62,628 nt of DNA from contig CAZXLT010000004.1 of NCBI GenBank assembly GCA_964641545.1, positions 1 through 62,628 on the forward strand, in the 5' to 3' direction. This stretch comes from an uncultured Candidatus Saccharibacteria bacterium (GTDB taxonomy: Bacteria; Patescibacteriota; Saccharimonadia; Saccharimonadales; AWTP1-31). The translations under genes were made by a program, and so were the position numbers. The notes beneath the pieces are model-generated. The model had not been told where the DNA came from, did no database searches, and saw nothing but the letters and a program-made list of their open reading frames with translations. Shown piece by piece: positions 5,067 through 24,363 of this stretch. The first letter of the stretch is position 1; every line of letters begins with the position of its first letter.

Positions 5067-6326
5067 ATGAAGGACAAAACGATTGAGGAGTTAATTAAGG
5101 CCGAGGCTAAACGACAAGCCGAAGGCTTGGAAATGATTCCGAGTGAAAACCACACATCGGCGGACGTATTGGCGGCGCTCGGCTCACGTCTGACTGACAA
5201 ATATTCCGAAGGATATCCCGGTCAACGCTATTACGGAGGGTGTGAAGTTGTTGATAAGGTTGAGAATCTGGCACGGGACCGGGCAAAAAAATTATTTGGC
5301 GTAACACATGCCAATGTTCAGCCATACTCTGGAAGTCCGGCAAATCAAGCGATTTATTTTGCTCTCGTTGACCCGGGCGATACGGTCATGGGGATGAGCT
5401 TGTTTTACGGCGGCCACATGACGCACGGTCTAAAGGTCAATTTTTCGGGTACCTTGTACCGCTCTGTACAGTACACAACCAACAAAGATGGATTCATGGA
5501 TTACGATGCGATTGCAACTTTAGCGCAGAAAGAAAAACCAAAGCTAATCGTGGCAGGTACCACTGCCTACCCACGCATTATTGACTGGAAAAAACTCCGC
5601 GTTATTGCTGACTCGGTGGGTGCATTTTTAGCTGCAGATATTTCCCATATTACCGGGCTAATTATTGCGGGCGTACATCCTGCTCCGTTTGGAATTGCTG
5701 ATGTTACTATGACAACCACGCATAAAACTTTACGTGGTCCACGTGGTGCGTTATTGCTGGCAAACGGTTTACCGTCGAACCCGCTCAAGAAACCAGAGCG
5801 AACTGCAGAAAACATTCCATCACTACTTGATAGAGCAATTATCCCAGGGCTTCAAGGTGGACCACATAATCACCAGACAGCCGCAATCGCTGTTGCTTTG
5901 CAAGAAGCATCGCAGCCGGAATTTAAAGAATACGGAAAACAAATTGCAAAGAATGCCAAGAAGCTATCCAAAGAGCTCATGAATCGTGGGTACAATCTTG
6001 TCACCGGAGGAACGGACAATCACCTGATGGTTGTTGATCTGACCAACAAAAATCTGAGTGGCAAAGAGGGCGAAACCGCATTAGGTAAGGCTGGCATTAC
6101 GGTCAATAAGAATACGGTGCCGTTTGACCCCCGTTCCCCATATGATCCAAGTGGTGTCCGGCTCGGAACACCAGCTCTAACAACCCGTGGTATGAAAGAA
6201 CCAGAGATGATTATGGTCGCAGATTGGATCGATCAGGCGCTGAGTGCTTCTACAAACGAAAAAATGCTCGCTAAAATTCATAACGAAATCAAGGCATTTG
6301 CTGCAAAATTCCCGCTACCTTCCTAG
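5067..6326 (+). CDS. glyA: Serine hydroxymethyltransferase
   Basis: IPSEN, YSEGYPGQRYYGG, NVQPYSGSPAN, TTTHKTLRGPRG (PLP lysine), GGTDNHL, SGVRLGT. Confidence 0.97.
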   Translation: MKDKTIEELIKAEAKRQAEGLEMIPSENHTSADVLAALGSRLTDKYSEGYPGQRYYGGCEVVDKVENLARDRAKKLFGVTHANVQPYSGSPANQAIYFALVDPGDTVMGMSLFYGGHMTHGLKVNFSGTLYRSVQYTTNKDGFMDYDAIATLAQKEKPKLIVAGTTAYPRIIDWKKLRVIADSVGAFLAADISHITGLIIAGVHPAPFGIADVTMTTTHKTLRGPRGALLLANGLPSNPLKKPERTAENIPSLLDRAIIPGLQGGPHNHQTAAIAVALQEASQPEFKEYGKQIAKNAKKLSKELMNRGYNLVTGGTDNHLMVVDLTNKNLSGKEGETALGKAGITVNKNTVPFDPRSPYDPSGVRLGTPALTTRGMKEPEMIMVADWIDQALSASTNEKMLAKIHNEIKAFAAKFPLPS

Positions 6327-9652: not shown

Positions 9653-9729
9653 GCACCCGTAGCTCAATTGGATAGAGCGTCTGTCTTCGGAACAGAAGGT
9701 TAGGGGTTCGAGTCCCTTCGGGTGTACCA
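9653..9729 (+). tRNA. tRNA-Arg (anticodon TCG)
   Basis: Acceptor GCACCCG/CGGGTGT, D-arm AGCTCAATTGGATAGAGC, anticodon arm TCTGT-CT TCG GA-ACAGA, T-arm GGTTCGAGTCC, encoded CCA. Confidence 0.95.
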
Positions 9730-9875
9730 AATTAAAGTCCCTAGCAAAGCTAGGGTTTTTAATTTGGTTTATTCGCGCAGCGAATCCGAACCCTAGGGTT
9801 CGGTCGGCAAAGCCAAGCGCATGAGCTTGCTCAGAGCATGGCTGTAATCGTGTGGCTGTCCCTTCGGGTGTACCA
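9730..9875 (+). repeat. tRNA-associated palindromic mini-element A, ending in an exact 18-bp copy of the tRNA-Arg 3' end
   Basis: gtcccttcgggtgtacca at 9712-9729 and 9858-9875; perfect palindrome ccgaaccctagggttcgg; core shared with element B at 24.1-24.3 kb. Confidence 0.8.
9739..9760 (+). terminator. Intrinsic terminator after tRNA-Arg
   Basis: ccctagc-aaa-gctaggg followed by TTTTT. Confidence 0.8.
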
Positions 9876-21352: not shown

Positions 21353-21778
21353 TTATATGACGTCGAATGTGTTTTTTGCCTCCGCAAATGATTTTTTAAT
21401 GATTTTTTTGAGTACTTTTATGTCGATGTCGGCTAGTTTTTTGATATATAAACACGAAACACTCGTCTTATGTTTACCGAGTTTTTCCAATTCTTGCGTA
21501 AGGTTATTAAAGCCCGGCATCATGTAAAGCGTAAGACTTTGTTTGCGTGGAGAGAAGCCAGTCAACGGCCAGTCTCCTTCTTGACTACTGCGCTCAGACT
21601 TGTAGTGATACATGCCATAGCCGACAATTGCGGTTCCCCACATTGCGGGTTTCTCGCCGGTAATTTCTGCAAAGACCTTGAGCAATTCTTTGCAGTCAGC
21701 TCGTTTTGTATTGTCTGGGATGCTATTGATAAAATCTTCTACACTTGCATCGTTCTTGAGGGTTTTGAGTTCAGCCAT
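21353..21778 (-). CDS. DUF1801 (YdhG-like) domain protein
   Basis: MWGTAIVGYGMYHYK, GFSPRKQSLTLY, LGKHKTSVSCLYIKKL. Confidence 0.88.
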   Translation of the reverse strand: MAELKTLKNDASVEDFINSIPDNTKRADCKELLKVFAEITGEKPAMWGTAIVGYGMYHYKSERSSQEGDWPLTGFSPRKQSLTLYMMPGFNNLTQELEKLGKHKTSVSCLYIKKLADIDIKVLKKIIKKSFAEAKNTFDVI

Positions 21779-23628: not shown

Positions 23629-24063
23629 TTATTCGCTATTGAACGACTCTTTGTAGTTTGATCGAAATGCATTTGTAATCATTTCTTTAAGCACATCAAG
23701 ATCTACATCACTCAGAGATTTTATATACAGGCAGCCCTTGCCAACTTTATGAAGCCCAAGTTTTTTCAGCAATTCATTATTAGTTGTCATAAGGTCATAC
23801 ATCACAAGCCCATAAATAGTTAAGGCTTGCTTTCTAGGAGAAAAGCCAACTCGTAACGAGTCGCCTTCACGCCCCGACGGGTATTTGTAATGATAACTAC
23901 CATAACCAACTATGCTCGGACCCCACATAGCTGGCTCTTCGCCAGTACAATCTTTAAAAATTTCCAAGAGACGTAAACTATCTTGTTTCTTAGATTCACC
24001 TTCTACTGAATTTATGAAATCCAGGACGCTCGCGTTATTCTTCTGAGTTTTAAGCTCTGCCAT
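23629..24063 (-). CDS. DUF1801 (YdhG-like) domain protein, second paralogue
   Basis: MAELKTQKNN start, MWGPSIVGYGSYHYKY, GFSPRKQALTIY, GKGCLYIK; TACAAT 6 nt upstream of ATG 24063. Confidence 0.88.
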   Translation of the reverse strand: MAELKTQKNNASVLDFINSVEGESKKQDSLRLLEIFKDCTGEEPAMWGPSIVGYGSYHYKYPSGREGDSLRVGFSPRKQALTIYGLVMYDLMTTNNELLKKLGLHKVGKGCLYIKSLSDVDLDVLKEMITNAFRSNYKESFNSE

Positions 24064-24077
24064 ACTGTTATTGTAAC

Positions 24078-24120: not shown

Positions 24121-24286
24121 TGGAGGGCTACTGGGATCGCTTCGCTCTTTCGTTCTGTCATGCTCGAAGCAAGCTTCTGCGCGTGCCATCCATTTCACCG
24201 AACCCACTTTTGCCGTGAAAAGATCAGGGTTCTCGAATCCGGGGGCTACTATTAAAAAGACCCCAGACAAGCTGAGGACATTTCAA
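24121..24286 (-). repeat. tRNA-associated palindromic mini-element B, ending in a near copy of the tRNA-Lys 3' end
   Basis: Minus-strand TCCCAGTAGCCCTCCA (24136-24121) vs tRNA end TCCCAGTGGGCCCTCCA; 21/26 core identity with element A. Confidence 0.78.
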
Positions 24287-24363
24287 TGGAGGGCCCACTG
24301 GGACTCGAACCCAGGACACGTGGCTTAAGAGGCCACTGCTCTAACCAACTGAGCTATGGGCCC
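24287..24363 (-). tRNA. tRNA-Lys (anticodon CTT)
   Basis: Acceptor GGGCCCA/TGGGCCC, anticodon arm GTGGC-CT CTT AA-GCCAC, T-arm GGTTCGAGTCC, encoded CCA. Confidence 0.95.

Follow-up and report, generated by a model that had tools for sequence, protein, structure and literature searches.

The DNA analysed here, hereafter the window, is a 62,628-nt stretch (contig CAZXLT010000004.1, assembly GCA_964641545.1) from an uncultured Candidatus Saccharibacteria bacterium. Two short, gene-less modules lie within it, each behind a tRNA gene and on the same strand: element A behind tRNA-Arg(TCG) and element B behind tRNA-Lys(CTT) (Table 1). The neighbouring genes have their closest relatives in Saccharibacteria and show clear synteny with a Saccharibacteria metagenome-assembled genome (MAG); exact-protein look-ups of the flanking genes at their predicted open reading frame (ORF) starts returned no record. 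In element A, the last 18 nt of the tRNA, GTCCCTTCGGGTGTACCA, recur exactly after a spacing of 128 nt. These are the only two occurrences in the window, with no third even at ≤3 mismatches, and two matches at that tolerance were found in 0 of 100 shuffles. No credible ORF lies between the two copies, the sole overlap being a 64-aa minus-strand ORF, and no integrase is encoded in the interval. Repeat and ORF searches thus agree with the initial annotation of this DNA, which had described an exact, gene-less recurrence of the tRNA end.

What separates the repeats in element A is a series of hairpins. The outer stem of the extended terminator hairpin is formed by TGGT paired with the terminal ACCA of tRNA-Arg itself, and its inner part, a terminator-like hairpin at 9739-9755, is followed by a T run (both strands were scored). 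The right arm of hairpin 3 is a copy of the tRNA T-stem 5' strand plus the start of the T-loop (..GGGTTCG), and its left arm is complementary; this tRNA-derived piece is absent from the initial description of the palindrome. After the distal repeat of copy A there is no second terminator.

Element B has the same architecture, as had been noted at the outset, with a second repeat copy that is decayed (ATCCCAGT-AG-CCCTCCA vs GTCCCAGT-GGG-CCCTCCA). The two elements have in common a 24-nt core, GCGCANNAGCTTGCTNNGAGCATG, that occurs nowhere else in the window, where 0.01 matches at ≤3 mismatches would be expected; the earlier figure of 21/26 identical positions for the shared, ordered core is correct. 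The four core bases that differ between A and B make up two compensatory pair changes (TGAG..CTCA vs GAAG..CTTC). The similarity score of the two copies to each other is 0.37.

Table 1. Features of elements A and B and their host tRNA genes in the window.
Feature	Position	Strand	Basis
tRNA-Arg(TCG), intact	9653-9729	+	ARAGORN; Rfam tRNA model, 69 bits
Direct-repeat copy 1, final 18 nt of tRNA-Arg(TCG), GTCCCTTCGGGTGTACCA	9712-9729	+	Repeat search
Extended terminator hairpin, ACCAAATTAAAGT-CCCTAGC-AAA-GCTAGGG-TTTTTAATTTGGT	9726-9768	+	Both-strand terminator scan, fold
Hairpin 2, ATTCG-CGCAG-CGAAT, ATTCGCGCAGCGAAT	9771-9785	+	Sequence
Hairpin 3, perfect palindrome CCGAACCCTAGGGTTCGG (arms CCGAACCCT/AGGGTTCGG)	9786-9803	+	Sequence, fold
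Conserved core hairpin, AGCC-AA-GCGCA-TGAG-CTTG-CTCA-GAGCAT-GGCT	9811-9843	+	Core pattern search, covariation
Core pattern proper, GCGCANNAGCTTGCTNNGAGCATG	9817-9840	+	Pattern search of window
Short 3' linker, GTAATCGTGTGGCT, in place of the variable third hairpin of most members	9844-9857	+	Family folds
Direct-repeat copy 2, exact tRNA positions 59-76 including CCA	9858-9875	+	Repeat search
tRNA-Lys(CTT), host of element B	24287-24363	-	ARAGORN
Element B, second module	24121-24286	-	Repeat, core and terminator searches, fold
Element B terminator stem	24261-24277	-	Terminator scan
Element B T-arm-like hairpin, GAGAACCC..GGGTTCGG	about 24198-24234	-	Fold
Element B core	24159-24182	-	Pattern search of window
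Element B decayed copy of tRNA-Lys end	24121-24137	-	Repeat comparison

A family of modules tied to cognate tRNA 3' ends

We scanned one genome per species, 185,579 species in all, with an exact core pattern in which 20 bases are specified, and obtained 84 matches against an estimated expectation of about 1. Nearly all were in Saccharibacteria, and several genomes held 2-4 of them. Since the sample was ascertained by this pattern, conservation of the 20 specified bases is partly a sampling effect, but one that does not touch the CAC beside the core, the covariation of pairs or the architecture. In 50 cases the core lay 83-125 nt downstream of a tRNA on the same strand, a spacing into which both window elements fall, and at least 14 tRNA identities act as hosts (Met, Asp, Ser, Pro, Glu, Arg, Tyr, Leu, Lys, Gly, Asn, Ala, His, and Thr), those for Arg covering three anticodons. 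A copy of the cognate tRNA end mostly followed 16-47 nt past the core, its boundary family-wide being tRNA positions 59/60 to 76. It was preserved at 18/18 positions in 15 copies and at 17/18 in 5 more, and others retained only its 5' part. Whether matches are always flanked by a cognate duplication was a check proposed in the initial annotation; each of the 50 tRNA-linked cores is followed by one. Among the 113 tRNAs of the fetched loci, 40 had a downstream copy of their own end, compared with 3 in the upstream control. The core was present at 39 of these 40 tRNAs, so that duplication and module belong together.

By these matches, the gene-less, strongly folded modules A and B belong to a large, conserved Saccharibacteria family. 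The scan thus upholds several earlier proposals: that the core match exceeds background, that further copies exist, that the 3' end of the respective tRNA closes each copy (exactly in A, in decayed form in B, and with cognate copies throughout the family), and that a non-autonomous, gene-less family is tied to tRNA 3' ends, as the 50 tRNA-linked copies support. When Rfam covariance models were run on the modules, only tRNA models matched. The IMG/VR viral contigs held no copy of either core subfamily, the INPHARED phages and PLSDB plasmids gave no match to the modules, and no described family for the module was found in Rfam or in the searched literature. The view that the family is undescribed therefore stands as far as sequence goes, but its architecture matches that of the tRNA-linked repeats (TLRs) of Escherichia coli (PMC8144298), which are compared below.

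Anatomy and covariation of the unit

Units are 146-207 nt long, lie directly downstream of an intact tRNA on its strand and share a single order: a very stable, CCA-inclusive terminator, a variable small hairpin, a T-arm-like hairpin, a linker with the core hairpin, another variable hairpin and, last, tRNA positions 59/60-76. As a whole, the unit is a partial copy of the 3' third of the tRNA whose T-loop is split by an insert of ~70-100 nt. The terminator's outer stem, in which the tRNA ACCA pairs with TGGT, was found at 41 of 54 module-bearing tRNAs vs 19 of 62 others, and 10 of 29 modules had a second terminator after the distal copy. Hairpin 2 varies in sequence and was present in every fold of 30 family members. 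In hairpin 3, the right arm throughout the family copies the cognate variable loop, T-stem 5' strand and GGTTCG, with up to 13 nt exact; on average it matched the cognate tRNA at 8.8/12 positions vs 7.7/12 for non-cognate tRNAs. For hairpins 2 and 3, the tRNA-sense strand gave the better fold in 43 of 48 copies.

The 27-nt core hardly changes even between very divergent genomes, and neither do the three bases 5' of it (CAC), although these lie outside the search pattern. Across 84 distinct copies of the core hairpin, 93.6% of cells were paired and 8 of 13 pairs had changed on both sides, a level of covariation reached in 0 of 500 shuffles (slid controls, 17-34%). Invariant C.A and G.A mismatches persist in the hairpin, as does a bulged A, and in a second subfamily (CGC..GTTTAC..ACG) A-U is replaced by G-C and C-G by U-A. 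A hammerhead or other known ribozyme was rejected, since the core motifs are unfit and Rfam gave no match. Likewise, no internal segment complementary to the distal tRNA end exceeded background across the modules, and a minihelix formed by these two parts was discarded since cognate complementarity was not above background.

In the unit, a constant scaffold alternates with stretches that match the cognate tRNA or its complement, and this could also be read as a programmable system in the manner of bridge or omega RNAs. Here the invariant hairpin would be a protein handle, and the tRNA-matching segments (an antisense left arm, a sense T-arm piece and a 17-19-nt tail) would guide a recombinase, transposase or nuclease to the T-loop. 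Consistent with such guides, the tail is free of cognate internal pairing, the universal T-loop TTCGA adjoins the matched segment, and at least 14 different tRNAs are in use. However, no effector gene adjoins any copy, and no partner gene in the style of IS110 bridge RNAs or IS200-605 omega RNAs was found within or beside the units. Moreover, the intact neighbouring tRNA would itself be a target, the T-arm piece matches its cognate tRNA only partly, and lineages follow tRNA type over the long term instead of retargeting freely. We therefore consider programmable targeting quite improbable.

Age of the modules

Modules behind different tRNAs of the same genome had a similarity of 0.48, no higher than that between genomes, and the closest pairs were found behind the same tRNA type in different genomes. 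In the L023 and L071 loci the modules are 92% identical vs 76% in the syntenic flanks, and other orthologous pairs showed the same trend. Because modules are more conserved than their flanks and same-genome copies are not closer to each other, they are old residents under purifying selection. The comparison of copies gives no sign of current mobilisation, and recent within-genome transposition was rejected as an origin since same-genome copies are no more alike than others.

Two suggestions of the initial annotation fare poorly in this light. Mobilisation in trans, if recent, finds no echo among same-genome copies, nor in any circle, empty allele, phage or plasmid copy, and a relic attachment module is at odds with orthologous copies that are more conserved than flanking genes and with hairpins that covary. 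The relic idea would make each module the joined arms of a former integrase-bearing island whose genes were deleted and which now drifts neutrally. Partial tRNA copies are indeed the scars that integrative elements typically leave, and tRNA-linked islands that retain remnants are familiar (bioRxiv 10.1101/2020.12.28.424599); in addition, the distal repeats are decayed at the window tRNA-Lys and in many relatives, and a variable gene islet follows the tRNA-Arg unit. Neutral drift, however, would hardly leave a core nearly invariant across such divergent genomes, maintain hairpins through compensatory changes, or let orthologous modules evolve more slowly than neighbouring genes. Considering also that no full-length parent with the module beside an integrase was seen in the 84 loci, an inert relic appears highly improbable.

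Empty sites, arrays and the mode of insertion

At the iron-permease/tRNA-Arg(TCG) locus, two related species (L002 and L003) have the tRNA and a terminator without the module, and synteny ends right after the tRNA at both loci. The family is present elsewhere in the assembly of L002 (L067). In the syntenic Gly-Arg(TCT)-His region, the tRNA that hosts a module differs between genomes. Module-free Arg sites in L045 and L065 are without the CCA-inclusive terminator, so the terminator apparently arrives with the unit. Empty sites, for which the initial annotation had called, are thus seen at the orthologous tRNA in L002, L003, L045, and L065, but no same-strain empty allele was found; the Joint Genome Institute (JGI) metagenomes held no empty-site allele of copy A, nor any identical tRNA-Arg. 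Logan contigs of 79-82% relatives (L001, L090, and L091) stop inside or at this tRNA-Arg, which suggests a repeat or polymorphism that disrupts assembly there; since they break inside the tRNA, these closest relatives are uninformative on the site. Tandem units and cargo-bearing arrays occur at eight loci (L009, L016, L042, L047, L052, L063, L077, and L082). The cargo genes, among them those for a methyltransferase and a RibD_C protein as well as unknowns, lie in cassettes with the same bounding repeat as the modules.

In 9 of 28 well-kept distal copies, position 59 differs from the tRNA, and identity is highest at positions 62-66. This pattern suits an identity block of the attachment (att) type better than a staggered-cut duplication. 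A casposon-like, staggered-cut target duplication was accordingly rejected, position 59 being often mismatched and terminal inverted repeats being absent. The position-59 mismatches likewise contradict a reverse-transcription stop at the 1-methyladenosine of position 58 (m1A58), which would yield an 18-nt copy as in retroviral primer-binding sites; some identities begin at position 58, and there is no nearby reverse transcriptase. [quoted passage not shown]

Genomic islands at tRNA genes, such as the tycheposons of Prochlorococcus, also have partial tRNA 3' copies flanking the insert (bioRxiv 10.1101/2020.12.28.424599). Integrative elements of this kind resemble the modules in being flanked by a full tRNA and a partial 3' copy, in piling up at one tRNA and in adjoining variable genes. 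Unlike the gene-free Saccharibacteria units, tycheposon-type elements carry a tyrosine recombinase and have att sites of ~40 nt, whereas here the identity block measures 17-19 nt and begins at a fixed point of the T-loop, and a conserved folded module fills the unit.

Comparison with the tRNA-linked repeats of E. coli

[quoted passage not shown] They include the 178-bp repeats of tyrT/tyrV (RttR) as well as rrA, rrB and rrF, which follow 5S rRNA (Egan & Landy 1978; Rudd 1999; both cited in PMC8144298). For rrA/B/F, transcription comes from read-through of terminator T1, with processing next to the repeat, and the rrn units lie between two terminators (PMC8144298). On reading the K-12 tyrV locus, we found three 178-bp units, each with four parts: GGGGAAGGAT, which is antisense to the repeat; CTTCGACCAAGGTTCGA, in which the variable arm, the T-stem 5' strand and the T-loop (GGTTCGA) are copied; a 67-nt GC-rich insert of small hairpins; and AATCCTTCCCCCACCACCA, tRNA positions 58-76. 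The RefSeq ncRNA (non-coding RNA) rttR covers positions 8-178 of the unit, with its end at the repeat's CCA.

The Saccharibacteria and E. coli units are alike in several respects. Both follow immediately on the tRNA or rRNA gene to which they are linked and share its strand, the TLR units measuring ~100-180 nt, and both end in 18-19 nt of the upstream gene's 3' end (18/18 in window copy A). The T-loop-split partial tRNA copy of tyrV is found in the Saccharibacteria units as well, and the two flanking terminators of the rrn repeats have their parallel in a third of the Saccharibacteria copies. They differ in that the internal antisense segment of the tyrV unit pairs with the repeat, with no such pairing in the Saccharibacteria units, and in that the Saccharibacteria family spans a phylum-level lineage, at least 14 tRNA identities and cassette arrays with cargo. 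The best matches to E. coli TLRs were a 14-nt exact and a 17-nt near-exact one, with a best E-value of 0.004. On comparison of the units, then, the T-loop-split architecture is common to Saccharibacteria modules and E. coli TLRs, and the sequence is not. The family is most likely the counterpart of the E. coli TLRs in both function and architecture.

Some small-scale resemblances were also seen. The 14-nt exact match, CGAGCGCCAGCGAG, links the E. coli K-12 tyrV insert (L092) to the Saccharibacteria loci L086 and L006, and the TLR insert and the modules are both built of mini-hairpins of the GCGAAGC/GCGCAGC type.

Going further, one might suppose a single, unrecognised mechanism for Saccharibacteria modules and E. 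coli TLRs: a spare tRNA 3' copy would take up a small folded nucleic acid in its T-loop, and a constant hairpin as protein handle, together with tRNA-matching guides, would amount to programmable tRNA-directed insertion or recombination without an enzyme in cis. We regard this as speculative and improbable.

Proposed readings: recombination-installed RNA or DNA site

We put at about one in two the probability that both window elements are TLR-type modules, installed by recombination at a tRNA 3' end and kept as folded RNA. [quoted passage not shown] Arrival by recombination in trans is suggested because of the repeats, the empty sites, the arrays and the element-borne terminator. Once in place, the unit may be retained as a folded RNA, trimmed at the duplicated tRNA end as is reported for RrA/B/F of E. 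coli and as the RefSeq RttR span suggests, and its invariant core hairpin may be a protein-binding handle. Retention as RNA is proposed because of purifying selection, covariation and sense-strand folding, and also because the units constantly share the direction of a strongly transcribed gene, carry a 3' end of tRNA type and have a precedent in E. coli.

Several results weigh against this reading. A strong terminator stands between tRNA and module in the scan of both window copies, and no promoter-like site was found inside either copy. The strand preference of the core hairpin is ambiguous. The modules contain GNA triloops (GCGAAGC, GCGCAGC, and GCGTAGC) and a two-base TT loop, which would also suit folded single-stranded DNA, since GNA triloops and the TT mini-loop are typical of stable DNA hairpins. 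The parallel with E. coli TLRs includes no sequence homology beyond short matches, and the CACGCGCAG..CGAGCATG core is absent from them. Regarding the recombination step, no recombinase domain was found in the six cargo ORFs of the arrays or in 20 ORFs checked around the window modules, and no integrase, transposase or reverse-transcriptase family was seen twice in 122 ORFs ≤4.5 kb downstream of modules. Finally, no excised circle, same-strain empty allele, phage or plasmid copy was found in IMG/VR, JGI metagenomes, INPHARED or PLSDB.

Genes that did occur near modules, within the same ≤4.5 kb downstream, include T4SS (type IV secretion system) pilin/TrbC-type genes at 4 loci and ImpB/MucB-type polymerase genes at 3 loci.

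The main rival explanation is that each module is a DNA-only site acting in cis for a gene-less cassette, similar to an integron attC site, a cis-mobilizable element (CIME) or an integrative mobile element exploiting Xer (IMEX), with the tRNA end as attI or attB. The site would fold as single-stranded DNA or a cruciform, would be served by a recombinase encoded elsewhere and would have no RNA function, its conservation reflecting selection for continued mobility. We judge this unlikely, though to be taken seriously. Direct repeats bound every unit, there are tandem arrays, and cargo cassettes share the bounding repeat; structure is held by covariation and folding is strand-specific. The triloops and TT mini-loop, as well as an upstream terminator without a promoter, also fit such a site. 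Yet the modules persist at orthologous positions under purifying selection with no recent within-genome spread, some cargo cassettes are without a module beside the repeat (e.g., L016), and the lack of a recurrent integrase, transposase or reverse-transcriptase family among the 122 neighbouring ORFs tells against this explanation too. In addition, the core hairpin also occurs in a larger RNA-like locus away from tRNAs, and the like-built E. coli units are expressed as RNAs (PMC8144298).

Comparison with known gene-less cassettes points to both likeness and difference. CIMEs are kilobase-sized deletion products of known integrative and conjugative or mobilizable elements, and IMEX use the host Xer system at dif. 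Like both, the modules have att-like repeats as bounds, are without recombination genes and would need a trans supply to move; unlike them, they are 146-207 nt long and structurally conserved, with no parent element or enzyme known. A search for a parent autonomous element, as the CIME comparison would have it, found none in the 84 loci, IMG/VR, INPHARED or PLSDB. In integrons, attC sites conserve structure over sequence and have 7-bp core sites. The modules share with attC cassettes a structured imperfect palindrome at the distal end, covariation, and arrays at one entry point, but their core is nearly invariant, their repeats are a 17-19-nt tRNA end and their tRNA hosts are many. No integrase of an intI-attI platform was found in the checked ORFs beside module tRNAs.

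Tiny genomes rarely keep non-coding DNA without reason, and here a module is nearly invariant behind many tRNAs of a candidate-phylum lineage. The puzzle of the origin and role of E. coli TLRs, which dates from 1978, looks general rather than a curiosity of that species, and the family offers hundreds of independent copies for comparative work. Moreover, the modules mark entry points of variable gene cassettes, which bears on gene exchange in epibionts with few classical mobile elements.

Other occurrences of the core and surroundings of the window modules

At three loci, the core hairpin tips a rod-like structured region of ~300 nt (L033, 2275-2640, plus strand; L072, 1250-1560, minus strand; L015, 1080-1364, plus strand). 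The core lies there within a block CATGAGGAGCAC-core-CGACGAAATG, and the regions, which have long-range pairings common to all three, are located away from tRNAs, either between gyrB and an AAA gene or behind the valyl-tRNA synthetase gene. Rfam gave no match to these larger RNA-like loci. Possibly the region is a housekeeping RNA not described so far, one with a protein-binding hairpin in common with the modules.

A mirror variant was seen in L068 (4380-4660), where a 24-nt copy of the tRNA-Ser 5' end, GGAGGGGTCGCCTAGTGGCCTATG, is followed by the core and, ~70 nt further on, by the intact tRNA-Ser; judging from this locus, a module can also occupy a partial 5' copy that lies upstream of a tRNA. 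Two core or near-core copies in a MAG labelled Polyangiaceae (L021, 270-480 and on the minus strand near 6161) are located in a long GC-rich hairpin and adjoin GCGAGCGAAGCGAGCGAGC and the tandem repeat CATCCCCTGACAGCGAG. Either they represent a relative of the element beyond Saccharibacteria, or the resemblance is due to chance.

In the window, 60 nt past element A, the segment 9937-9962 (GGTGCAGTTCGAATCCCTATTGCCCA) resembles a decayed T-arm and 3' end of another tRNA, and a similar relic, GTGGGTTCGAACATCCGACGCCA, follows the tRNA-Arg terminator of L002; both look like scars of other integration events. Between element A and the folC/dihydrofolate reductase-like genes, the segment 10017-12601 holds four ORFs, three without a Pfam match and one AAA_33, in place of which the relative L002 has one unknown ORF along with a NUDIX and an HSP20 gene. 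Judged by this difference in gene content, the segment is a variable islet adjoining tRNA-Arg. Downstream of element B, two DUF1801 paralogues (21353-21778 and 23629-24066, minus strand) flank a pilin-like M23 gene.
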